The position numbers and the translations under genes are program-made. The notes beneath the pieces are model-generated. The model did no database searches. It was not told the origin of the DNA and worked only from the letters and a program-made list of their open reading frames with translations. From Patescibacteria group bacterium (lineage in GTDB: Bacteria > Patescibacteriota > Patescibacteriia > Magasanikbacterales > GWA2-37-8), in the NCBI GenBank assembly GCA_004321885.1, contig SCQK01000010.1:1-14582 (forward strand): a stretch of DNA of 14,582 nucleotides, given 5' to 3'. Positions within the stretch are counted from its first letter, which is position 1. Each line of letters starts with the position of its first letter. This document shows, piece after piece, positions 2-9,365 of this stretch.

Positions 2-1564
2 GAAACGATGACAAACAGGAATGCCGGGACCCAGGACCCGGGAACATTGGTGGACGGGTCGTTTGAAATCGGCAGAAGAAATTACGCCTCCGGGTATTAT
101 TATTACACTGGTTCTATTGATGACGCGCGCGTGTATAATCGTGTTCTGTCGGCCAGCGAAATAATGCAACTATACAAAATGGGAGTGGCCAAGGTGGCCA
201 AAACCCCCACGCCGGCCGCCGGAAGCAACTCCCTCAAAACCGGCCTGGTGGGCTGGTGGACTTTTGACGGCGCCGATGTGACGACGAATACCACGACCGA
301 CAAAAGCGGGAACGGGAACAACGGGGCAAGAGGCGTTGGCACAACAGTTGCCACCGGCAAACTGGGACAGGCAATGAAGTTTAACGGCTCCACTGAAAGT
401 ATTTTGGTTACTGATTCGCCATCTTTAAGTATCACGGACAAAATTACTATTTCCGCCTGGGCCAAGTGGACAACCGGCGGTTCTGATTCCGACGCGTATC
501 TTCTAAGTAAAGGAACGGATAAGTATAATTTCCTTATTTATGCCGTGGACGCCGGCAAGATGACTTTTTTGATCAGCGCGTTGTCTCCAAGCACCACTTT
601 AAAAACAGTCGGTGCTTATAACAATAACAAATGGCATCTTTTTACAGGAACATACGACCCTAACGGCGGTACAAACAACATAAAAATATACGTGGATGGC
701 GTATTGGAAAATCAGGCAACTAAAACCGGTTCGCCATCCGACGACGCCAATGGTCTGGGGATAGGCAGATATGGCACTGGCGGGAATTATCGCTGGAATG
801 GCTCCATTGACGACGCCCGCGTGTACAATCGCGTCTTGACGGCTGCCGAAGTAATGCAACTATACAAAATGGGAGTGGCCAAGGTGGCCAAAACCCCCAC
901 TCCGTCCGCCGGCAGTAACTCGCTCAAAACCGGCCTGGTGGGTTGGTGGACAATGGATGGCAGGGATACAACGGCTACCGCCGTGAACGACAAAAGCGGT
1001 TCCGGCAATAATGGCACTCGGACAGGCGGCAAAGTCGCGAGCGGCAAATTGGGACAGGCAATAAAGTTTAATGGAAGCACAGAATACATTACCACGGTTG
1101 ATAGTCCGTTTGATTTTGGCACTGGCAATTTTACAGCCGCGGCCTGGTTCAAAGTCAGCACCCAAGCGGAAGCTAACGCGATTTTAGATAAGTATGGCGC
1201 CGGCGGCGCGGGAGACAAGGGGTGGATTTTGTGGGCTAATTCTACCGGGAACAATAAATTGCTGGGTTTTATTGATAATGGAAGCGTTGATATGACCGGA
1301 GCGACCTCGCTTGTTGTCGGGAGATGGTATCACGCCGCGCTGGTAAGAAATGGCGACATTGGTTATTTGTATTTGAATGGTGTCCAAGACGCAAGTTTAG
1401 GCGGGTTGGCCGCGAGAAATGCTGTTTCTAATGTAGCGATGCAGATTGGCTCAGAAAATGGCAGCGCGACCTATGCTTTTAACGGCTCTATTGACGACGC
1501 CCGCGTCTACAACCGCGCCCTGTCGGCCAGCGAAATAATGCAGTTGTACAAGATGGGGAGATAA
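2..1564 (+). CDS. 5'-partial surface-type protein built of tandem LamG (concanavalin A-like lectin/glucanase) jelly-roll domains
   Basis: ORF 8..1564 is open to the window edge (no stop in frame at 2..7). The product has three copies of the LamG C-terminal strand motif GSIDDARVYNR(V/A)L(S/T)A(S/A)E(I/V)MQLYKMG at about 229-aa spacing. Each copy is preceded by a beta-rich segment (..SGKLGQA(M/I)KFNGSTE.., ..WHLFTGTYD.. / ..WYHAALVRNG..). The first motif lies only about 35 aa into the ORF, so the first domain must begin upstream of the window. Stop is TAA at 1562..1564. Confidence 0.75.
   Translation, partial: ETMTNRNAGTQDPGTLVDGSFEIGRRNYASGYYYYTGSIDDARVYNRVLSASEIMQLYKMGVAKVAKTPTPAAGSNSLKTGLVGWWTFDGADVTTNTTTDKSGNGNNGARGVGTTVATGKLGQAMKFNGSTESILVTDSPSLSITDKITISAWAKWTTGGSDSDAYLLSKGTDKYNFLIYAVDAGKMTFLISALSPSTTLKTVGAYNNNKWHLFTGTYDPNGGTNNIKIYVDGVLENQATKTGSPSDDANGLGIGRYGTGGNYRWNGSIDDARVYNRVLTAAEVMQLYKMGVAKVAKTPTPSAGSNSLKTGLVGWWTMDGRDTTATAVNDKSGSGNNGTRTGGKVASGKLGQAIKFNGSTEYITTVDSPFDFGTGNFTAAAWFKVSTQAEANAILDKYGAGGAGDKGWILWANSTGNNKLLGFIDNGSVDMTGATSLVVGRWYHAALVRNGDIGYLYLNGVQDASLGGLAARNAVSNVAMQIGSENGSATYAFNGSIDDARVYNRALSASEIMQLYKMGR
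110..1564 (+). repeat. Intragenic tandem repeat inside the LamG gene. About 150-nt blocks of high nucleotide identity at 110..262 and 800..952 (period 690 nt). A third partial copy at 1484..1564 (period 684 nt)
   Basis: Direct comparison: ggttctattgatgacgcgcgcgtgtataatcgtgttctgtcggccagcgaaataatgcaactatacaaaatgggagtggccaaggtggccaaaacccccac.. versus ggctccattgacgacgcccgcgtgtacaatcgcgtcttgacggctgccgaagtaatgcaactatacaaaatgggagtggccaaggtggccaaaacccccac... These encode the domain end plus the VAKVAKTPTP(A/S)AGSNSLKTGLVGWWT linker. Confidence 0.8.
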
Positions 1565-1570
1565 GCTATG
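1491..1570 (+). repeat. 80-bp direct repeat, copy 1. Covers the last 25 codons of the LamG gene, its stop, and the RBS plus ATG
   Basis: 1491..1570 matches 2185..2264 at 77 of 80 positions (mismatches at 1512/2206, 1549/2243, 1565/2259). In this copy the terminal ATG (1568) opens only M-L-L-V-stop. Confidence 0.9.
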
Positions 1571-1586
1571 TTACTAGTGTAGTATT

Positions 1587-1865
1587 ATGAAAGCCGAAAA
1601 AGTGAAGGAGATAGTGATGTATTGGCGCAAAACCGCCGAGCACGACTACGAAACAATGCTTGGGCTATTTAGAATTAAACGATATTCTGACGCGTTGTTT
1701 TATTTTGACAAAGCGACTGTTAAACTGCTGAACACCTTTAATGATTTTAATATTAGATGCAGGTACCCTGAATACAAGCTGGCGTTTTACAAAAGATGCA
1801 CCAGAGGATACGCCGGCAGACAATTGAAAGAGATGAAAAAAATTTACCACGGCTTGGAAAAATAA
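1587..1865 (+). CDS. HEPN-domain protein, the putative toxin or substrate-binding partner of the adjacent nucleotidyltransferase. Alternative start at 1617, which has a GGAG RBS
   Basis: Small all-helical product. AEHDYETMLGLFRIKRYSDALFYFDKATVKLL fits the HEPN first-helix pattern (A..D...A..l...g.y..A.f....A.EK.LK). C-terminal ..NIRCRYPEYKLAFYKR.. fits the HEPN R-Y-P..Y motif. It is paired with a minimal-nucleotidyltransferase gene. AT-rich relative to flanks. Confidence 0.55.
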   Translation: MKAEKVKEIVMYWRKTAEHDYETMLGLFRIKRYSDALFYFDKATVKLLNTFNDFNIRCRYPEYKLAFYKRCTRGYAGRQLKEMKKIYHGLEK

Positions 1866-2179
1866 TATGTCCAAAAAAAGCAAAATTAATAGCGAAACAA
1901 TACGCGAAAAAATTAAAAGAAAATAATTTTTCATTTTTTGCCGTATATATTTTTGGCTCGCAAATTAAGGGGAAATCGGATAAGTGGAGCGACATTGATG
2001 TGGCTGTCGTTTCCGATAAATTTAGAAGAAATTACGATAAAAATAGGTTTAAGTTGTGGGACATACGTTTGGAGGTGGACAGCCGGATAGAGCCGCATGG
2101 TTTTTCAGTGAAAGATTTTAAGGATGACGCCAATCCGGTGGCTTATGAAATAAGAAAGACCGGAGTAAAAGTGGCGTAA
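1796..2179 (+). CDS. Minimal nucleotidyltransferase (MNT, Pol-beta superfamily), putative antitoxin partner of the HEPN protein
   Basis: Product has the nucleotidyltransferase signature ..FAVYIFGSQIKGKSDKWSDIDVAVVSD.. (hG[GS] followed by the D-x-D metal ligands). ATG 1796 is the only ATG/GTG/TTG start in this frame downstream of the frame-opening stop at 1769..1771, so the gene overlaps the HEPN gene by 70 nt. The overlap makes the exact start uncertain. Confidence 0.6.
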   Translation: MHQRIRRQTIERDEKNLPRLGKIICPKKAKLIAKQYAKKLKENNFSFFAVYIFGSQIKGKSDKWSDIDVAVVSDKFRRNYDKNRFKLWDIRLEVDSRIEPHGFSVKDFKDDANPVAYEIRKTGVKVA

Positions 2180-2184
2180 ATCAG

Positions 2185-2264
2185 TTGACGACGCCCGCGT
2201 CTACAGCCGCGCCCTGTCGGCCAGCGAAATAATGCAGTTGTATAAGATGGGGAGATAAACTATG
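2185..2264 (+). repeat. 80-bp direct repeat, copy 2. A dead duplicate of the LamG gene 3' end (VDDARVYSRALSASEIMQLYKMGR-stop), then the functional RBS/ATG of the 2262..2768 gene
   Basis: See copy 1. The reading frame of the duplicated gene end is not part of any long ORF. GGGGAG lies 9 nt upstream of ATG 2262. Confidence 0.9.
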
Positions 2265-2768
2265 CCAACAAAAAGACGAATTACTTCAATTCAGCCGGTT
2301 GAGGCGCCGCCGGAAATTGCGGCGAAAAAGACCGTGCCCAAGTGGGTGGTTTTTGTTTTGGTGGTTATTTTGCTCCTGGTTAGCGGCGCTTTTGTCTGGG
2401 CCTATGCCAACAACGTGAGCGTTTCCAAAAAACTAATCGTGGATTCGGTGGACGCGCAGAGGCAGGAAGTGAAGAACCAAATAAAAGAGCTGGTGGCGCA
2501 GGTGAACAGGCATATTGTTTTGCCCGAGGGCGAGGAACCGACCGTGGCCACGATAAATGATGCCGAGACCCTGGCCAAAACCCAGCCGTTTTACACCGGG
2601 GCGCATAATGGCGACAAAATTTTGATTTATGTTCGCGCGCAAAAGGCCTTTATTTACGACCCGAATCGCGATGTGCTGGTGAACGTGGGGCCGGTAAGTC
2701 TACAGCCCAAGCCCGCGGCTCCGGCGCAGGAGTCGGCGTCGAAAAAAACCGGCGCCACGACAGAGTGA
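2262..2768 (+). CDS. Hypothetical membrane-anchored protein. N-terminal single TM helix then a soluble domain
   Basis: ORF with a GGGGAG RBS. Product has the hydrophobic segment WVVFVLVVILLLVSGAFVWAY after a K/R-rich N-terminus, followed by a soluble domain ending in a P/A-rich tail. No recognisable family. Confidence 0.6.
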   Translation: MPTKRRITSIQPVEAPPEIAAKKTVPKWVVFVLVVILLLVSGAFVWAYANNVSVSKKLIVDSVDAQRQEVKNQIKELVAQVNRHIVLPEGEEPTVATINDAETLAKTQPFYTGAHNGDKILIYVRAQKAFIYDPNRDVLVNVGPVSLQPKPAAPAQESASKKTGATTE

Positions 2769-2787
2769 TGATGAAAGGCCGATTCTA

Positions 2788-2816
2788 TTGAAAGTTTAGG
2801 TTGTCCGATGTAGAAT
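2788..2816 (+). promoter_or_regulatory. Sigma70-like promoter TTGAAA-N17-TAGAAT. The predicted transcription start coincides with the A of ATG 2823 (leaderless transcript?)
   Basis: TTGAAA at 2788..2793, 17-nt spacer, TAGAAT at 2811..2816. The -10 ends 6 nt before ATG 2823. Confidence 0.4.
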
Positions 2817-2822
2817 GGAAGT

Positions 2823-3017
2823 ATGAAGAAAGAAAATAATAAGCACAAATTTTATAGAGTATATGCGAATCTGCCTCTGAATTTAAGGTCGGAAATAATT
2901 TTAGTTTTGCCCGGGAAAGGGCCTATTACTTGGAATGTAGCGTATTTAGAAATTGAAAACGAGACTGAATTGGGTGAAATAATTTTGGAAAAATTGGAGG
3001 CATTGCAAATAATATAA
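2823..3017 (+). CDS. Hypothetical small protein (64 aa), acidic C-terminus
   Basis: ORF directly after the promoter. AT-rich. No recognisable motif. First gene of a tightly packed four-gene cluster. Confidence 0.45.
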   Translation: MKKENNKHKFYRVYANLPLNLRSEIILVLPGKGPITWNVAYLEIENETELGEIILEKLEALQII

Positions 3018-3020
3018 AAT

Positions 3021-3233
3021 ATGGAAATTGCGCAAGAAATAAAGGATTTGGTTGTGGCCAGATTGAAAACACTACCGGAGAATACCGGAATTTCCATAGG
3101 GTCCATGGGGAATTTTAGCAAACAAGATTTAATTTCTCACGTGGAAGAAGGAGACGAAGTGGGTCAAAAAATCGCGGAAGTGGAACTGTCTTTTTTGCGC
3201 GGGTTGAAAGACGACATTCTGTATGAATCATAA
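3021..3233 (+). CDS. Hypothetical small acidic protein (70 aa)
   Basis: ORF begins 3 nt after the previous stop. Its stop overlaps the next gene's start by 11 nt (translational coupling). No recognisable motif. Confidence 0.45.
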   Translation: MEIAQEIKDLVVARLKTLPENTGISIGSMGNFSKQDLISHVEEGDEVGQKIAEVELSFLRGLKDDILYES

Positions 3234-3867
3234 AATATTAATTACCCGCCCCAATTACGATTTGACAACTCGTTATATTTCAAGTTGGGCCAAGAATATT
3301 ATTAAATTTGCCGAAGAAAAGGGAAGCGTGGTGCTGGATTTGGAAAAGGAGCGGGCGAATCGTAAAGAATTTGAAAGCATGATAAGAAAACATGAGCCAC
3401 CGTTGATATTTTTAAACGGACACGGCGATTATGATTTAGTTACCGGGCAGGAGGAAGACGTGTTGGTGCGCGTCGGCGATAATGAGACTTTGTTGGATTC
3501 AAAAGTTGTTTATGCGCTATCATGTCGTTCAGGCAAGAAGTTGGGCCCCGAGAGCGTGAAGCGCGGAGCTAAGGCCTACATCGGATATAAGGAGGATTTT
3601 ATTTTTTTATACAACGAAGAACAAAAATCCAGACCCGAACAAGATAAAACAGCCGAGATTTTTTCAGAGCCGTCAAATCAGGTAATGGTTTCTTTGTTAA
3701 AAAATCACACGGCGAAAGAGGCCTGCAAGAAAAGCAAGGAATCATATTTTCGGCGGATTAGAAAATTGCTTTATAGCAAAGCTACGAGCGCGGAGAGTGC
3801 GGTTGTTAGATTTTTAATTTGGGATATGCAAAATTTGGTTTGCTATGAGCAAGAGGCGCAAAAATAA
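3223..3867 (+). CDS. Putative caspase-like (caspase-hemoglobinase fold, clan CD-like) cysteine peptidase domain protein
   Basis: Predicted alternating beta/alpha order: KILIT, helix, VVLDL, helix, PLIFLNGHG (His-Gly after strand 3), then VVYALSCRSG (Cys after strand 4). This is the topology and dyad placement of caspase/metacaspase/gingipain-type peptidases (compare metacaspase H-Y-S-G-H-G and D-S-C-H-S-G). The His-Cys spacing of about 33 aa is on the short side. Call is tentative. Confidence 0.35.
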   Translation: MNHKILITRPNYDLTTRYISSWAKNIIKFAEEKGSVVLDLEKERANRKEFESMIRKHEPPLIFLNGHGDYDLVTGQEEDVLVRVGDNETLLDSKVVYALSCRSGKKLGPESVKRGAKAYIGYKEDFIFLYNEEQKSRPEQDKTAEIFSEPSNQVMVSLLKNHTAKEACKKSKESYFRRIRKLLYSKATSAESAVVRFLIWDMQNLVCYEQEAQK

Positions 3868-3904
3868 CAACAAAACAAAACCAAAGTATTAAGTCAAGGA
3901 GAGT

Positions 3905-6055
3905 ATGCGTGTCTTGGCAGAAGAAAATTTTGAGAAAGAAGTCAAGGAAAATTTTTTGTTTCAATTTTTCGTTCCCAAAGCCGGCGTTTATTTTATTGAA
4001 ATCAGCGCGTCAGCCAAGAGCTGGTGGCAGAATTTATTAAAGTTTCGTTCGTTTTTTCGCGATGATGATTTGGCTTTAAAAATAGACGAGTCCGGATTTG
4101 ACAAACTTTCCGGCAAACGGGGCATATTTGATGGTGAAGCGGCGTGGAACGGCAACAAGTTGAAGAGTTTGGAGCAAACTATTGTTTTTTTACTGCCGCT
4201 TGGCGCCGGGGCGCACAAAATACAATTTTTTTCCGACCAAAGACCGGTTCTAAAAAAAATTATTGTCTACGAAAGTGGGAGAAATATTTTATATTCGCCG
4301 TCACCCGCGTCGCCGCGGGATGGCAATCGCAGGCCATGGCTGACGTTCGCATTTAAGGACCTTGTGATAAAAAATCTAAAAGTGAAAGCCAAAGCGGACG
4401 CGGACAAAGACGATTCTGATATTAAACTTGTAATTAACGGTCAAGTTGAAAAAAACGAAGAGTCAAAATCGCACCATGGCTGGTATTGGTGCGGCCGTGT
4501 TTTGAAAGGGAAAGCTAAAATTTTTGATAAAAGTTTTAATCGTTCGGAAGGAAGCGCCCGTTTTATTGAATTTTGGACTGATGGAATGCCGTTGTTAGAA
4601 GAGATTAAAATGCGAGTGACGGAAAAGGGGGTTGAAAAAACCGGTCGGGTTGTCGTGCGTAAGGACATTGTCGGTTCGGGATTGTCGGAGGTAAACCTGC
4701 GCGCGGCGGCTGATGAGAATGGCGATATAACCGGGAAGATAAAAACAGGAGAAGAGGTGTTGATAGATGAAATAGCTGTTTCGGGTAGTAATGTGGCGGG
4801 TATGCTGTCAAATAATTGGCATGGAGTTTATTATAATGGAATGAGCGGGTATGTGCACTCTTCTCTCATAGAACTTGCGGGGCAAGAGAGAAAAAGAATT
4901 ACCGATTTTATTCAAACCAAAGCCGGAGAATTGGGGATTGATAAAAATTTAGCCTTGAATTTGGCTTACTGCGAATCAAAGTGGCTACCGTTCGCGATTT
5001 CGGAAACCGGGAATAAAGGCATTTTTGAACTCGGAGGGGATACAATAATTGAGATAAATGGGAAATTAGGCGGTAATATTCGCGACCCTTATGACCCGTG
5101 GCAAAATATTGACGGGGGCCTGAAATATTTGAGGTTTCTTTTAGAGAGATACAAAGACACAGAAAATAGTTTGGAAAAATCCATTACCGCGTGGAGCCGC
5201 GGACCGGACAGAGTGCCGTATAACAAGCCATTTGTTTACGCCGAGCAATCCAGAGGAGCGCAGGCGCTTCTTGATGGCGTTTTGAAATCAAAGGCAGGAG
5301 AGAATATATTAAAAGCACTCGGGGCGCTGGTTGTTTTTTTGATTTTAGGTTTTGGGGCCATTGCCTTCGCCTCAAGCGGCGACAACGCAAGGGAGCGGCT
5401 GTGGTATTTGAAATTGGAGCGCGGAGTTGAGCTTGGACTGGAGCACGCGGCCTGGCTCGTGGACATTGGCGAGGTTGACTTGGCGGACTTTGAAGATGAT
5501 TTTGATTTGGACGGCGAGTTTGAAAAAGTCCAATTTTTTGTTTTCCCCTCAAATGTTGATGACGGGTATTTTACCCGCGTATTTCTTTCGGCGACTGAAT
5601 ATTTTGACGTGGACGGCATATTTATAGAGGGCAAAGGTCTTGATTTAAACGGCGGCGGAGAAAAAGAGCTTTTTGTCAGGACTGTGAAAGATGATATTTT
5701 TAATTTGTATATTTTTAGTTTGCGGGATAAAAAATTGCGTTTGTTTCCAGTGTATGACAACGAGATTACGCGGGAAAATGTAAAGAGCATTAAGTCAAAA
5801 TTTAGAATAGAAAACACACGCACTGGTGATGGAGATGGGAATGAGGCGGTTGCCTTTATAGCCAAACGAGCCAATTATAAGGGAGAATATTGCGATTGGT
5901 ATAACACTTTGGAATATTACGAGTGGAATGGAGTCGGTTTTGAAAAAAGTAGGACAGAAGCAGAGCCGCTTTTTCCGGAGGGTCATTGCGCCGCCCCAAG
6001 CAGTAGACCCGAATTATATGGCCCTGCGCCCACCATACAATGGTCGGTGAATTAA
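3905..6055 (+). CDS. Multidomain protein. N-terminal beta-rich region, then bacterial SH3 (SH3b) domain, then SLT/GH23 lytic transglycosylase domain, then a single TM helix, then an acidic C-terminal domain
   Basis: AGGAGA RBS at 3895. SH3b match: VNLRAAADENGDITGKIKTGEEVLIDE...WHGVYYNGMSGYVHSSLIEL. SLT match: LAYCESKWLPFAISETGNKGIFELGG (catalytic E-S then A.S..G..G motif), DPYDPWQNIDGGLKYLRFLLERY (DP..NI..G..YL motif) and ITAWSRGPDRV (AYNAG-like motif). One hydrophobic helix ILKALGALVVFLILGFGAIAFASS at about residue 470. No N-terminal signal peptide. Confidence 0.8.
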   Translation: MRVLAEENFEKEVKENFLFQFFVPKAGVYFIEISASAKSWWQNLLKFRSFFRDDDLALKIDESGFDKLSGKRGIFDGEAAWNGNKLKSLEQTIVFLLPLGAGAHKIQFFSDQRPVLKKIIVYESGRNILYSPSPASPRDGNRRPWLTFAFKDLVIKNLKVKAKADADKDDSDIKLVINGQVEKNEESKSHHGWYWCGRVLKGKAKIFDKSFNRSEGSARFIEFWTDGMPLLEEIKMRVTEKGVEKTGRVVVRKDIVGSGLSEVNLRAAADENGDITGKIKTGEEVLIDEIAVSGSNVAGMLSNNWHGVYYNGMSGYVHSSLIELAGQERKRITDFIQTKAGELGIDKNLALNLAYCESKWLPFAISETGNKGIFELGGDTIIEINGKLGGNIRDPYDPWQNIDGGLKYLRFLLERYKDTENSLEKSITAWSRGPDRVPYNKPFVYAEQSRGAQALLDGVLKSKAGENILKALGALVVFLILGFGAIAFASSGDNARERLWYLKLERGVELGLEHAAWLVDIGEVDLADFEDDFDLDGEFEKVQFFVFPSNVDDGYFTRVFLSATEYFDVDGIFIEGKGLDLNGGGEKELFVRTVKDDIFNLYIFSLRDKKLRLFPVYDNEITRENVKSIKSKFRIENTRTGDGDGNEAVAFIAKRANYKGEYCDWYNTLEYYEWNGVGFEKSRTEAEPLFPEGHCAAPSSRPELYGPAPTIQWSVN

Positions 6056-6112
6056 AAAATTTTAGGAGATATATGTTAAATATTTTTAACGTAAAAAATC
6101 ATAACGGGAACC

Positions 6113-6191
6113 GCGATACCCCCTCCTCACCTCCCCCTTATAAAGGGGGAGGAGTCGCCGCCGCCGGTAATTCCTCCCCTATAAGGGGAGG
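6113..6191. repeat. Family-1 hairpin elements, two adjacent copies. ATACCCCCTC...CCTCCCCC-TTATAAA-GGGGGAGG at 6113..6152. A shorter CCTCCCC-TATAA-GGGGAGG at 6173..6191
   Basis: Perfect 8-bp stem with 7-nt loop at 6130..6152. The same 23-mer recurs at 8589..8611, and the 5' flank ATACCCCCTC recurs at 8575. Lies in the intergenic region after the 716-aa gene; no T-tract follows. Confidence 0.7.
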
Positions 6192-6270
6192 GACAACCCC
6201 CCACGCCAAAAATTTTGGTGTGGGGGTAAAGGGTGGGGTTAAAACAAATTTCACCAAATATCAGGACCCG

Positions 6271-7101
6271 GAAAAGGGGATGAGCGGCGGCCAGCTCAAA
6301 TGGAGTTTGTGGTTTTCGGGCCGTCGGGTGATTTTTTACCGGGCCGCGCTTATTTTTGTCGCGGCCGCGGCCATAATTATCTGGCTGTTCAGCCTGTGGC
6401 GTTGGGTATTTTTTATCATAGAAATTCCCGATGCCAGGCGCGTGCGCGCCGAGCTCGCCCGCTTTGACGATTATAGCATCATCAATCAACGCATCGGGTT
6501 TCAGCCGGTGCAGATTTTCGGCGCCCAGTTTTTGGCGAGCGGGAAAGACAAATACGACGTCGCGGCCGAGATGTTTAATCCGAACACGCGGTCAGTGGTG
6601 TTTTTTGATTATTATTTTTTTTATAATAATACCTCCACTCCAAAACAATCCGCGTTTTTATTGCCGGGCCAAAGGCGGCCGCTGGTGGCTTTGGGCCTGG
6701 CCGGCGCCGCGGGCGAGCCGGTTTTGCATATAGAAAACGTGAAGTGGAAAAAAATTTCCGCTCACGATGTCAGCGACCCGAAGCAGTATCAGGATTATCG
6801 CCTAAATTTCGCGGTGACGGATTTTGTTTTTTCACCGGCTTCGGAAAGCGGGGCCGATTTTCCGGCCGTGAAATTTAATTTGACCAATAACGGTCCGTAC
6901 AGCTATAATGCCCCCAAGTTTTTGATTGGGCTGACGCAAAATGAGGAGCTGGTGAGCGTTTTTAGGGCGGATTTTGCTTCGTTTGCGTATGGCGAGACAA
7001 AAAATATGGATATTCGGCTGTTTGTTCCGAATGCCTCGGCCGCGGGCGCGATTGTTTATCCGCTCATAAACATTTATGATAAGGAGGCCTATCTGCGATG
7101 A
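6271..7101 (+). CDS. Hypothetical membrane-anchored protein (N-terminal TM, then extracytoplasmic domain). Translationally coupled to the SEDS gene
   Basis: The ORF track gives 6040..7101, but the first 77 codons are low-complexity readthrough of the palindromic repeats. ATG 6271 is preceded by GAAAAGGGG. Product has a TM segment ALIFVAAAAIIIWLFSLWRWVFFII. Stop TGA overlaps the ATG of the next gene (ATGA at 7098). Confidence 0.6.
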   Translation, partial: EKGMSGGQLKWSLWFSGRRVIFYRAALIFVAAAAIIIWLFSLWRWVFFIIEIPDARRVRAELARFDDYSIINQRIGFQPVQIFGAQFLASGKDKYDVAAEMFNPNTRSVVFFDYYFFYNNTSTPKQSAFLLPGQRRPLVALGLAGAAGEPVLHIENVKWKKISAHDVSDPKQYQDYRLNFAVTDFVFSPASESGADFPAVKFNLTNNGPYSYNAPKFLIGLTQNEELVSVFRADFASFAYGETKNMDIRLFVPNASAAGAIVYPLINIYDKEAYLR

Positions 7102-8222
7102 TTCGCGATTCCCTTGTAAAATTACGCTTCTTTGACTGGAAACTGCTGGCCGCGGTTTTTCTGTTGATAGGCATGGGGCTGGCCGCTATTTACAGCGTGG
7201 ATTTGTCACGCGGCTCCGAGCTGGTTTATTTTAAAAAACAGGTTATCGCCGCCGGCCTCGGCGCTATTTTTTTGGTTGCGGCCGGGCTGACGCAAAGCTC
7301 TTTCTGGCGCTTCGCGGCCAAGTGGCTGTACCTTGGTTCGCTTCTCTCTCTGGCGGCGGTTTTACTTTTCGGTTCCACCATTCACGGCACCAGGGGCTGG
7401 TTTTCGGCTTTTGGCTTTTCTTTTCAGCCCGTGGAATTCGCGAAAATCGCGCTGATACTTCTGCTGTCCTACATTATTTATAAATTTGGGCGCAAGTTTG
7501 AGCGGCCGCTGTTTTTTTTCGGCACCGGCGCTGTTACTTTGCTCATGCTCGGCTTGGTTTTGCTTCAGCCTGATTTGGGCTCGGCATTTCTTTTGGGACT
7601 GGTGTGGCTGGGATTGGTATGGTTGGCCGGCGCGCGCCGGATTTTTATTTTGCTTTTGCTCTTGACGGTGATTTTGCTGGGGGTGGGCTCCTGGTATTTG
7701 GCGCTGAAAGATTATCAAAAAGAACGGCTCATCACTTTCGTGGACCCGGGCCGTGACCAGTTGAACGCGGGTTATAACATCACCCAGTCGGTAATAGCGG
7801 TGGGCGCTGGCAAATGGTATGGCCGCGGGCTGGGATTTGGCTCGCAAAGCCAGTTGCGTTTTTTACCAGAAGCCCAAACCGACTTTATTTTTTCCGTTAT
7901 CGGCGAAGAGTTGGGTTTTGCCGGCGCGGCCGTGATGCTGGCCCTGTTTGCCGTTGTTTTTTGGCGGCTGTTGGTTTTTATCCGCTCGGCCAAGGATGAT
8001 TTCGCGGCCAGCGCGTCCGCCGGCGCGCTCGTGCTTTTTTTGACTCAATTTTTTACCAATGTCGGGGCCAATATCGGCCTGGTGCCCATCACCGGCGTTA
8101 CCCTGCCCTTTATCAGCTACGGCGGTTCTTCACTGGCGATGAACCTGGCGCTGGTCGGCATTCTGCAGAGTCTGGCGCAGAGTACGCGAGCGCAAGTTGA
8201 CAAGGGAGCGGATTTGAGTTAA
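7098..8222 (+). CDS. ftsW: SEDS-family peptidoglycan glycosyltransferase (FtsW/RodA/SpoVE)
   Basis: Polytopic membrane protein with the SEDS signature region ..RFLPEAQTDFIFSVIGEELGFAGAAVMLALF.. and ..LPFISYGGSSL... The symbol is family-level; FtsW versus RodA cannot be decided from sequence. Confidence 0.85.
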   Translation: MIRDSLVKLRFFDWKLLAAVFLLIGMGLAAIYSVDLSRGSELVYFKKQVIAAGLGAIFLVAAGLTQSSFWRFAAKWLYLGSLLSLAAVLLFGSTIHGTRGWFSAFGFSFQPVEFAKIALILLLSYIIYKFGRKFERPLFFFGTGAVTLLMLGLVLLQPDLGSAFLLGLVWLGLVWLAGARRIFILLLLLTVILLGVGSWYLALKDYQKERLITFVDPGRDQLNAGYNITQSVIAVGAGKWYGRGLGFGSQSQLRFLPEAQTDFIFSVIGEELGFAGAAVMLALFAVVFWRLLVFIRSAKDDFAASASAGALVLFLTQFFTNVGANIGLVPITGVTLPFISYGGSSLAMNLALVGILQSLAQSTRAQVDKGADLS

Positions 8223-8236
8223 TATGTGAAGCGCGT

Positions 8237-8575
8237 ATGTCTTTTAATAAAAAAAGCAAGGGATTTTCCGAGTGGGAGCAGAGCGCGAAGATGCTCGGCA
8301 CCTGTACGGTTTGCGGGCGGGCCTATGGCTCGGGCAAAATGAAAATTCTGAAAAATGAAAAAAAGTCGCGCCTTTTGCACGCGACTTGCGCGTTTTGCAA
8401 CAGTCATTTTATGGCCATGCTGATGAAAATGGGCGGCGGGATGAGCACGATAGGCATGGTGACGGATTTGAGCCTGAATGATTCCAGGCGCCTGCTGGAT
8501 AAAGCGCCGATTACCGTGAATGAAGCCATAGAGGGGTATAAATATATCAATGAAAAGTTTTCACAAGCGAAGTAA
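8237..8575 (+). CDS. Hypothetical small protein with a CxxC...CxxC zinc-ribbon motif
   Basis: Product contains CTVCG and CAFCN 26 residues apart. No family recognised. Confidence 0.5.
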   Translation: MSFNKKSKGFSEWEQSAKMLGTCTVCGRAYGSGKMKILKNEKKSRLLHATCAFCNSHFMAMLMKMGGGMSTIGMVTDLSLNDSRRLLDKAPITVNEAIEGYKYINEKFSQAK

Positions 8576-8624
8576 TACCCCCTCTTGTCCTCCCCCTTAT
8601 AAAGGGGGAGGTTAGGTAGGGGTA
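8575..8624. repeat. Family-1 hairpin element: ATACCCCCTCTTGTCCTCCCCCTTATAAAGGGGGAGG with an imperfect outer stem TACCCCCT/AGGGGTAT
   Basis: The 23-mer core is identical to 6130..6152. Located between the zinc-ribbon gene stop and the rplY RBS. Confidence 0.7.
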
Positions 8625-8630
8625 TATAAT

Positions 8631-9365
8631 ATGTCGTTTTCTTTATCCGCTAAAACCAGAACAGAAAAAGGGGAGAAGGTGAGGAGCAAAACCGCTATTC
8701 CGGCTGTTGTTTATGGCGCCGGTTCAAAAGTTGAATCTTTGACTTTGAGCGCGGCTGATTTCGCCAAACTGTACCAGTCCGCCGGCGAGGCCAGTCTGAT
8801 TGATTTGGCCATAGACGACAAGGCAAACGGCAAGGTTTTGATTCACGCTCTTCAATACGACCCGGTAACGGACGCGGTGGCCCATGTTGATTTGCGCCGG
8901 ATAGATATGACCAAACCCATGACCGCCTCGGTGCGGCTGGTGTTTAGCGGAGAGTCGCCGGTGATAAAAGAGCAGGGCGGCACCGTGGTGCGTCACCTGG
9001 AAGAGGCGCAGGTGCGCTGTCTGCCGAAGGATTTAATCGCGCAGATTACGGTGGATTTGGGCGCTTTGAAAACTTTTGACGATGTGGTGCGCGTGCGGGA
9101 TTTGTCCTTGCCAGCCGGCGTGGCCATTATCAATCACGGGCCCGAGGATTTGGTGGTCAAAGCCCTGCCGGCCCTCACCGAAGAAGAAATCAAGGCCATG
9201 GAAGAAGCGGCTAAGCCGGCTGATTTGTCTGCCATAGAAATGGCCGGCAAGAAGAAGGAAGAAGAAGCGGCCGAGGGTGAAGAAGGCGCCGCTCTCGAGG
9301 GCGCGGCCAAGCCCGCGGCCGAGGCTAAGGCAGAAGAGAAGAAAAAAGAAGAACCGAAGAAATAA
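8631..9365 (+). CDS. rplY: 50S ribosomal protein L25 / general stress protein Ctc, with a C-terminal E/K/A-rich extension
   Basis: N-terminal region ..IPAVVYGAGSKVESLTLSAADFAKL.. and ..DAVAHVDLRRID...VRLVFSGESPVIKEQGGTVVRHLEEAQVRCLPKDLIAQITVDL.. match the L25/Ctc family. GGGG RBS. Confidence 0.85.
   Translation: MSFSLSAKTRTEKGEKVRSKTAIPAVVYGAGSKVESLTLSAADFAKLYQSAGEASLIDLAIDDKANGKVLIHALQYDPVTDAVAHVDLRRIDMTKPMTASVRLVFSGESPVIKEQGGTVVRHLEEAQVRCLPKDLIAQITVDLGALKTFDDVVRVRDLSLPAGVAIINHGPEDLVVKALPALTEEEIKAMEEAAKPADLSAIEMAGKKKEEEAAEGEEGAALEGAAKPAAEAKAEEKKKEEPKK

Follow-up and report, generated by a model that had tools for sequence, protein, structure and literature searches.

The window analysed here, a stretch of 14,582 nucleotides from a Patescibacteria genome (contig SCQK01000010.1), contains four closely spaced genes on the forward strand. 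The first two encode small acidic proteins of 64 and 70 amino acids (g1, 2823..3017, pI 5.8, and g2, 3021..3233, pI 4.5), the third a basic protein of 214 amino acids predicted to be a clan-CD (caspase/gingipain-fold) cysteine peptidase (g3, 3223..3867, pI 8.8), and the fourth an SH3b-SLT lytic transglycosylase of 716 amino acids (g4, 3905..6055). The products of g1, g2 and g3 are predicted to be cytoplasmic. A gap of 3 nt separates g1 from g2, g3 shares its first 11 nt with the end of g2, and g4 follows g3 after 37 nt that include an AAGGAG ribosome-binding site; the tightly packed or overlapping arrangement is present as the initial annotation described it. All four are considered genuine genes because homologues exist for each of them (more than 70 each for g1, g2 and g3, and about 20 full-length homologues for g4). 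The rest of the window encodes ribosomal proteins, RF1, PrmC and RodA, and Rfam and tRNA scans over the window gave no matches.

Upstream of g1 lies a promoter-like site on the forward strand (TTGAAA-N17-TAGAAT, 2788..2816) that agrees with the consensus at 10 of 12 positions, in line with the near-consensus promoter proposed initially. It is the second-best-scoring of the sites within positions 1400-8700, where 17 are predicted compared with 9.8 +/- 3.1 in shuffled sequences. With 6 nt between its -10 hexamer and the ATG of g1, the site implies an mRNA that is leaderless or nearly so. The region had also been judged AT-richer than the core genes, and this is borne out: GC is 0.38-0.42 in g1-g3 and 0.41-0.49 in g4, compared with 0.50-0.57 in the downstream core genes. 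For g1-g2-g3 together, hereafter the cassette, it is 0.394 versus 0.491 in the remaining contig.

A candidate caspase-like peptidase

The predicted structure of g3 is the alpha/beta caspase-hemoglobinase fold of clan CD. It is a single domain with a three-helix bundle and one last strand at its end, and its structural matches include separase, TPR-CHAT, the legumain-type ligase OaAEP1 and GPI transamidase. In the model, the putative catalytic histidine (His67 in the motif NGHG, codon 3421..3423) directly follows strand 61-65 and the putative catalytic cysteine (Cys101 in the motif ALSC, codon 3523..3525) directly follows strand 95-99. Each is present in 46 of 46 sequences; in another set, His67 is found in 66 of 67 and Cys101 in all 67. 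The order of the dyad, a histidine (followed by glycine) and then a cysteine, each conserved and each ending a hydrophobic core strand, is that of clan CD and substantiates the earlier suggestion of a protease-like protein with a His/Cys dyad. By analogy with gingipain and metacaspase pockets, the invariant Asp13 and Asp141 hint at specificity for a basic P1 residue.

The family is not recognized at the sequence level. No Pfam or NCBIfam family matches g3 at E <= 0.1, including the Peptidase_C14, C13, C25, C11, C50 and CHAT profiles, nor is there a match in PHROGs or PADLOC, and the g3 profile gives no clan-CD match in the PDB at E <= 10. A Foldseek search of viral structures returned only weak caspase or clostripain-like matches. 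Overall, g3 appears to be a minimal and catalytically competent clan-CD cysteine endopeptidase, from which proteolytic activity would be expected, and at 214 amino acids it may be among the smallest apparently active clan-CD peptidases.

The two small acidic proteins

Neither g1 nor g2 belongs to a family in Pfam, NCBIfam, PHROGs or PADLOC, and profile searches of the PDB gave nothing meaningful, consistent with the initial description of two tiny acidic proteins of no known family. When 71 members of each of the two families were compared with Pfam at E <= 10, only scattered chance matches were found. The charge pattern seen in the window is also that of the families, with median pI values of 5.2 for g1, 5.0 for g2 and 8.9 for g3.

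In the g1 alignment P18, R22, W37 and E43 are invariant and the C-terminal Ile-Ile is near-invariant; short motifs with invariant residues comprise N16-L17-P18, R22 and the C-terminal Ile-Ile in g1, and R14, D45, G48, K50 and K63 in g2. The g2 protein is a compact predicted domain (helix, beta-hairpin, helix, helix) that is conserved along nearly its full length, and a structure search found no counterpart of this predicted fold among solved structures. The model of g2 is well folded, which contrasts with many labile antitoxins and counts against the working that we propose below.

An archaeal virus carries a 66-amino-acid protein and a 248-amino-acid distant relative of g3, encoded with a 4-nt overlap. 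Although the profile-profile alignment of g1 and g2 is weak (P = 0.005, probability 7%), the two are probably distant paralogues. We retain this only because the small viral ORF matches both profiles over the same region.

The cassette in CPR bacteria and DPANN archaea

A pattern-based scan of 185,579 species representatives, using one strict peptide pattern, detected 72 cassette loci. The carriers are CPR bacteria and DPANN archaea, and the cassette has the same form in both. Among 78 loci, g1 lies directly upstream of g2-g3 in 74 and g2 is in place in 76, the exceptions being contig ends. The genes g4, g5 and g0 are absent from all other cassette loci (g4 in 0 of about 70). The median gap from g1 to g2 is 4 nt and the median distance from g2 to g3 is -8 nt; junctions fall within -60 to +25 nt in 100% of cases for g2-g3 and 98% for g1-g2. 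The two small genes are translationally coupled to g3.

Signs of a promoter belonging to the cassette itself recur at other loci. In 52 of 61 bacterial loci a -10-like hexamer lies no more than 34 nt ahead of the g1 start codon, and in 33 of the 61 it ends 4-11 nt before the ATG, versus 22.5% of other genes of the same loci (Fisher p = 1.4e-6). Only one of the 61 has a Shine-Dalgarno-like motif ahead of g1. In the archaea, TATA-like boxes lie some 25-30 nt upstream at several loci.

In 50 of 64 loci the cassette has a higher AT content than the flanking sequence, the difference reaching 16 points. Its three proteins are unusually well conserved (40-46% identity between the domains Bacteria and Archaea), one copy per genome is the usual state, and the g3 tree broadly follows taxonomy. 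It is kept in complete genomes of only about 0.83-0.88 Mb (L029, L043 and L056). The conservation, single copy and congruent tree are less typical of toxin-antitoxin or defence systems and could suit a conserved role in the cell. The cassette is most likely an accessory module common to CPR bacteria and DPANN archaea, and our literature search found no description of it or of its locus tags.

Its genomic position varies between loci. The 132 immediate neighbour genes fall into 127 Pfam families, none represented in more than 2, and no fourth gene recurs around the cassette except a generic GT2 at 11 loci. The flanking phage or defence-island genes for which the initial annotation advised a check do not recur: across the cassette loci we found no recurring phage, defence-island or mobile-element surroundings, and no PADLOC defence model was matched by g1-g4. 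Both observations are counted against the working proposed below. Searches of IMG/VR with either the g3 alignment or the viral homologue as query returned no relatives, and a plasmid search also came up empty.

The neighbouring lytic transglycosylase

The description of g4 as an SH3b-SLT membrane protein is confirmed by Pfam (SH3_3 at amino acids 261-322; SLT at 336-437, E = 5e-14) and by a single predicted membrane helix. An N-terminal domain (amino acids 1-240) precedes the SH3b and SLT domains, which are followed by the one hydrophobic segment (about 464-493) and a C-terminal domain of no assigned type. The N-terminal domain is duplicated and CPR-specific, and is elsewhere also fused to SleB-type Hydrolase_2 domains. 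The SLT domain matched MltC and MltF in the PDB and has, where the matched stretch begins, the Glu-Ser pair (AYCESKW) of family-1 lytic transglycosylases; its Glu is presumably the catalytic one. With 33.4 and 30.7 bits against NCBIfam cut-offs of 354 and 375 for MltC and MltF, g4 is not an equivalog of either, and it belongs to a CPR-specific family. A metagenome scan with g4 found distant SLT domains only.

We also considered a phage lysis cassette (holin, endolysin and spanin) and rejected it, given that no holin or spanin was found (no PHROG match below E = 0.07), that no g3 relatives turned up in IMG/VR and that the other genes of the window encode ribosomal proteins, RF1, PrmC and RodA. 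The PHROG matches of the region arise solely via the SLT domain of g4.

Proposed working of the cassette

We tentatively favour, with confidence somewhat short of even, a self-contained g1-g2-g3 protease cassette in which the partners hold, tune or target g3, next to an independent g4. Positions 2788-3867 form a three-gene unit with its own promoter, whose products may assemble into a cytoplasmic three-protein complex. The basic g3 would be held, tuned or targeted by its cognate acidic partners, with g1 and g2 acting as pseudo-substrate inhibitors or regulatory subunits and perhaps being cleaved themselves. Upon some biological trigger, release of g3 would lead to proteolysis of these partners or of cell proteins. 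By analogy, such a logic would parallel that of separase-securin, three-component toxin-antitoxin, Craspase or CalpL modules.

The initial annotation instead read the region as one four-gene operon for programmed lysis or attack on a host wall, with g3 activating or controlling the murein hydrolase g4. The genes share a strand, g3 and g4 are just 37 nt apart, and because no terminator-like site is predicted between them, read-through may co-transcribe g4 with the cassette in this contig. Both are also AT-richer than core genes, and g4 has no N-terminal hydrophobic segment by hydropathy. The annotation itself had counted a lack of co-conservation elsewhere against a four-gene functional unit, however, and g4 accompanies the cassette at none of the roughly 70 other loci. 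In other CPR genomes, four homologues of g4 (L092-L095) lie in unrelated neighbourhoods with no cassette beside any of them, contrary to the idea of a protease-controlled lytic enzyme. In this contig g4 is at least as tightly tied to the downstream genes, overlapping the next gene by 16 nt, which in turn shares 4 nt with rodA. The region matches no holin or spanin family, and the cassette also occurs in DPANN which, being archaea, are not expected to contain murein. A host-attack role is further disfavoured since g1, g2 and g3 have no hydrophobic membrane-type segment by hydropathy, which argues against their secretion. We therefore regard the four-gene operon as highly improbable: g4 is a separate, membrane-anchored lytic transglycosylase of the CPR lineage that adjoins the cassette only in this genome, by chance juxtaposition. 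That the region is no standard housekeeping arrangement is nevertheless upheld.

Two further explanations keep the three genes together. In a maturation system, g1 and/or g2 would be precursors and g3 their sole processor, cleaving them or acting as a clan-CD transpeptidase or ligase (as in legumain-type ligases and GPI8), so that a small active protein or peptide results. That the three genes strictly co-occur and are translationally coupled agrees with this, as do the short motifs that hold the invariant residues of g1 and g2, the presence of OaAEP1 and GPI transamidase among the structural matches of g3, and the retention of a small-protein and protease pair in the virus. It nevertheless seems unlikely, as the cassette comes with neither an export signal nor a modification enzyme or transporter, no cleavage site was identified in g1 or g2, and the compact predicted fold of g2, conserved almost throughout, is unlike a leader-plus-core peptide. 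Alternatively, a g1-g2-g3 complex could perform routine processing or quality control that ultra-small symbionts need, acting on a target shared by bacteria and archaea such as a ribosomal or translation protein. The very high conservation over phyla and domains, the mostly single copy, the roughly taxonomy-congruent g3 tree, the retention in the complete genomes of about 0.83-0.88 Mb mentioned above and the absence of a defence signature in PADLOC and the neighbouring Pfam families all point this way. Counting against such a housekeeping factor are the small number of loci, 72 among 185,579 species representatives, although one strict peptide pattern was used for that scan, the variable genomic position, a GC below that of the host in most loci and the distant relative on a virus. 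We consider it quite unlikely.

CPR and DPANN organisms account for a large part of microbial diversity, and no function is known for most of the conserved genes specific to these lineages. The cassette adds a compact three-gene unit with an enzymatic core, common to bacteria and archaea and unmatched in Pfam, NCBIfam, PHROGs and PADLOC. The small size of g3 recommends it for structural and enzymological study, and the cassette may reveal small-partner regulation of caspase-like proteases outside sensor-fused defence systems. The analysis also corrects a tempting mis-annotation, in which genes that lie side by side by chance were read as a caspase-plus-lysin "suicide operon". A bolder and doubtful proposal is that the cassette is an unrecognized proteolytic switch that spans both domains and is specific to the ultra-small episymbionts of CPR and DPANN, an archaeal virus carrying a distant relative. 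A new minimal caspase-like family and two partners of new fold, expressed from a leaderless mRNA usable in both domains, would then control growth arrest, cell death or a response to infection or host detachment.

Comparison with known systems

Like the family-1 enzymes MltC and MltF, g4 combines an SLT domain bearing the Glu-Ser pair with a wall-binding domain, here SH3b, but it lacks a lipoprotein or signal sequence and has a duplicated N-terminal domain, a single hydrophobic segment and an extra C-terminal domain.

CPR-C4, a vasohibin-like cysteine protease of about 220 amino acids, shows high conservation in CPR and was recognized only via its structure (PMC9108980). Similarly, g3 is a hypothetical protein of comparable size recognized as a cysteine protease via structure. 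Membership of g3 in the CPR-C4 family was rejected: the cysteine (C61) precedes the histidine (H93) in CPR-C4 (PMC9108980), whereas His67 precedes Cys101 in g3, which has a caspase fold, and the g3 profile finds no such sequence in the PDB.

Among clan CD peptidases (gingipains, C25; CHAT proteins of the SAVED-CHAT and TPR-CHAT/Craspase types; metacaspases and orthocaspases, C14; legumain, C13; separase, C50), g3 stands apart in having no sequence-level Pfam or PDB match and no prodomain, sensor domain (SAVED, TPR or NACHT) or signal peptide (the last by hydropathy only). It is encoded with two small partner genes in all complete loci.

The cassette shows no homology to known toxin or antitoxin families and, in contrast to these systems, is usually single-copy with a tree that is largely congruent with taxonomy. 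In architecture only, it resembles toxin-antitoxin systems such as omega-epsilon-zeta and type II, with small acidic genes upstream of and coupled to a larger basic enzyme, in a free-standing unit with its own promoter and a variable position. Unlike Craspase and CalpL, it has no CRISPR, CBASS or nucleotide-sensor domain in or near it and no sigma factor in the unit, and g1 and g2, at 64 and 70 amino acids, have an unmatched fold. In its logic alone, with the role of the partners here being a putative one, the cassette is like separase-securin, Craspase-Csx30/Csx31/RpoE and CalpL-CalpT-CalpS, each of which pairs a protease with dedicated small partners that serve as inhibitors or substrates.

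Conservation and genomic context of the cassette

The conserved unit in this region consists of three genes (g1, g2 and g3), not the four that the initial annotation had joined into one lysis or attack operon. The four open reading frames it proposed are all present, with g1 at 2823-3017 (64 aa), g2 at 3021-3233 (70 aa), g3 at 3223-3867 (214 aa) and g4 at 3905-6055 (716 aa). In the window, g1 and g2 are 3 nt apart, g2 and g3 overlap by 11 nt, and the 37 nt that separate g3 and g4 contain an AAGGAG ribosome-binding site. The reported AT-richness also holds, as the GC content is 0.38-0.42 in g1-g3 and 0.41-0.49 in g4 compared with 0.50-0.57 in the downstream core genes. The window covers a complete contig (14,582 bp) from a metagenome-assembled Patescibacteria genome, and its remaining genes include core RodA/FtsW, L25, PrmC, RF1, L31 and S2.

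When 185,579 species were scanned, each represented by one genome, 72 cassette loci were recovered. The CPR carriers are Magasanikbacteria, Falkowbacteria, Kuenenbacteria, Uhrbacteria, Ryanbacteria, Nomurabacteria, Taylorbacteria, Roizmanbacteria, Woesebacteria, Gottesmanbacteria, Berkelbacteria and others. DPANN archaea also carry the cassette, on two complete chromosomes (Aenigmatarchaeota CP066684 and archaeon GW2011_AR20 CP010426) and in Woesearchaeota, Nanoarchaeota and Micrarchaeota assemblies. When all ORFs of 78 loci were searched, g1 homologues were detected in 74 and g2 homologues in 76, always immediately 5' of g3 and with constant order and strand; all exceptions are contig ends. 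These spacings are conserved: across loci, a median of 4 nt separates g1 from g2, and g2 and g3 overlap, at a median distance of -8 nt. The three genes are a strictly co-inherited, translationally coupled trio. Neither g4, nor the gene downstream of it (g5), nor the gene upstream of the cassette (g0) occurs in any other of these loci.

The cassette is an autonomous unit found at variable genomic positions. All-against-all clustering of its neighbours recovered only a generic glycosyltransferase (11 loci) and a GIY-YIG family (5 loci) as recurrent, and 132 immediate neighbours match 127 Pfam families, none of them more than twice. The sole multi-copy case seen is the assembly MFD04716.bin.1.355, where two nearly identical copies (L062 and L063) are each flanked by paralogous large genes. 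The cassette also occurs in third-party assemblies (L024, L026, L027, L033, L036, L046 and L045) that bear the names 'uncultured Gammaproteobacteria' or 'Methanosarcinales'; these labels are probably wrong, because the g3 sequences of these assemblies nest among those of CPR or DPANN.

In 50 of 64 loci the cassette has a higher AT content than the surrounding DNA (mean difference 3.6 points), with an excess of up to 16 points in GC-rich hosts. In the hosts with the highest GC content, for example at loci L074, L054, L076 and L001, it rises to 10-16 GC points. A neighbour-joining tree of g3 places the archaeal sequences close to Microgenomates, in one or two clades, and groups the Parcubacteria subgroups according to their taxonomy, a pattern which suggests that descent was mostly vertical, with a few transfers across domains.

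The HEPN/MNT stretch at 1587-2179 is AT-rich as well (GC 0.38-0.40). It comprises a 92-aa HEPN-like ORF, whose match is limited to the first third of the HEPN profile, overlapping by 70 nt a 127-aa MntA-like nucleotidyltransferase ORF (NCBIfam MntA_antitoxin, E = 1e-9). The two look like a toxin-antitoxin pair, possibly degraded, in the unusual order HEPN then MNT. A 518-aa ORF (8-1564), starting 7 nt from the 5' end of the contig, has three LamG/ConA-like repeats, with a near-identical SIDDARVYNR.L.A.E(I/V)MQLYKMG motif at the end of each, and a sub-threshold NCBIfam match to the TafC fimbrial protein.

Promoter and possible leaderless expression

The proposed promoter TTGAAA-N17-TAGAAT (2788-2816) matches at 10 of 12 positions and ranks second among the promoter-like sites of the scanned region. 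The -10 box and the g1 start codon lie close together at 2811-2825, and the DNA upstream of g1 was compared across L001-L077. The cassette usually has its own promoter: among 61 bacterial loci, 52 have a -10-like hexamer within 34 nt of the g1 ATG. The hexamer ends 4-11 nt 5' of the ATG in 33 of the 61; the corresponding share among other genes at these loci is 22.5% (p = 1.4e-6). In this comparison the control starts come from a crude gene caller, and we take it as a lead. A Shine-Dalgarno-like motif precedes g1 in a single one of the 61 loci, and TATA-like boxes are present about 25-30 nt 5' of the g1 ATG in several of the archaeal loci. Together, these features suggest a leaderless g1 transcript in both domains.

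g3 is predicted to adopt a clan-CD protease fold

The 214-aa protein had been described as protease-like with a His/Cys dyad, and the predicted structure bears this out: His67 comes after strand 61-65 and Cys101 after strand 95-99, the arrangement found in clan CD. Its structural matches include the gingipains Kgp (Lys-gingipain, 16.3) and RgpB (Arg-gingipain, 16.2), followed by SAVED-CHAT (15.3), Metacaspase-9 (13.1), TPR-CHAT (Craspase, 12.6), legumain (12.2), separase (12.1) and caspases (about 11). We found at least 301 g3 homologues, all without a functional name or Pfam domain, and no sequence-level match to named clan-CD families or PDB chains; g3 therefore represents a sequence family that is new, although its fold is known. 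An alignment of 46 homologues shows no variation at N65-G66-H67-G68 or C101. Across 67 genomic loci, His67 is retained in 66, Cys101 and Asp141 in 67 and Asp13 in 63; the two aspartates may point to a preference for Arg/Lys like that of gingipains and metacaspases. An exhaustive profile search returned 372 clusters at 50% identity (E <= 1e-30), 1284 (1e-10) and 2359 (1e-3), and the best 150 clusters are nearly all single-domain, full-length proteins of about 200-220 aa, with some shorter fragments. The published CPR cysteine protease CPR-C4 was considered and rejected as the g3 family, being vasohibin-like with the opposite order of catalytic residues (Cys61 before His93; PMC9108980).

Small proteins and a viral relative

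As the initial annotation stated, g1 and g2 are acidic and of no known family; their median family pI is 5.2 and 5.0, respectively, vs 8.9 for the basic g3, and all three lack a match in Pfam, NCBIfam, PHROGs or PADLOC. Invariant positions are P18, R22, W37 and E43 in g1, which also has a conserved C-terminal Ile-Ile, and V11, R14, L15, S25, G27, G48, K50, L59 and K63 in g2. The g1 sequence has the same pattern of elements as g2, and a profile-profile alignment gives a weak match (P = 0.005); the two are probable paralogues. No hydrophobic membrane-type segment was found in g1, g2 or g3, and their location is therefore likely cytoplasmic.

A tblastn search of GenBank phages gave a single match, the archaeal virus Caudoviricetes sp. 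vir519 (BK063666.1), with Methanofastidiosa as its predicted host; searches of IMG/VR and of plasmids gave no match. In the viral g3 relative (248 aa, 28% identity over residues 34-175, E = 3e-6) the GHG and ALSC motifs are intact, and a hydrophobic tail is added at the C-terminus. Directly upstream, with a 4-nt overlap, is encoded a 66-aa protein that, in a five-sequence test, weakly matches the profiles of g1 (E = 1.4e-3) and g2 (E = 1.4e-4), in both cases over the helix-2 to helix-3 region. This distant two-gene version (L096, 3696-4639) indicates that the pairing of a small protein with a g3-type protease reaches beyond the core family.

g4 and its downstream genes

The SH3b-SLT architecture assigned to g4 was recovered (Pfam SH3_3, aa 261-322; SLT, aa 336-437). 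Its SLT domain resembles MltC and MltF, although it scores well short of the equivalog cut-offs. A CPR-specific domain with an internal duplication occupies the first 240 aa; in other CPR proteins this domain is joined to SleB-type Hydrolase_2 domains. There is no N-terminal hydrophobic or signal-like segment; the only hydrophobic segment (about aa 464-493) follows the SH3b and SLT domains. About 20 full-length homologues (40-48% identity) occur in CPR genomes.

In this genome g4, g5 and rodA look translationally coupled, since g4 and g5 overlap by 16 nt and g5 and rodA (RodA/FtsW family, 7098-8222) by 4 nt. The 353-aa g5 protein belongs to no known family and has a Gly/Pro-rich N-terminus and one hydrophobic segment (g5 and rodA together span 6040-8222); a search of cassette loci L001-L077 found no g5 homologue. 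A 112-aa protein encoded between rodA and the L25 gene (8237-8575) has two CxxC pairs (CTVCGRAY ... CAFCNSHF) and no Pfam match, and looks like a zinc ribbon.

Possible functions of the cassette

The initial annotation read the region as a candidate lysis or attack module, possibly with a protease-controlled lytic enzyme. No terminator-like site separates g3 and g4 in this contig, and co-transcription of g4 with the cassette is therefore possible locally but not conserved elsewhere. In four genomes, the g4 homologue has neither the cassette nor rodA as a neighbour and is surrounded by unrelated genes, most of them housekeeping. We consider the protease-controlled lysis module very improbable. 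It seems unlikely that the cassette is a dedicated system for maturing or ligating g1 and g2, and a lineage-specific housekeeping processing factor is a little less plausible still.

Neither the cassette as a whole nor any of its three protein families (g3 and its two partners) has a counterpart in Pfam, NCBIfam, PHROGs or PADLOC, and a literature search found no paper describing them. The fold of g3 is already known. The cassette pairs acidic partners with a basic enzyme. We tentatively favour a regulated-protease switch, in which g1, g2 and g3 would form a complex and the small proteins would inhibit, regulate or target the protease, or serve as its substrates; by analogy, such a switch might follow the logic of toxin-antitoxin or separase-securin systems.
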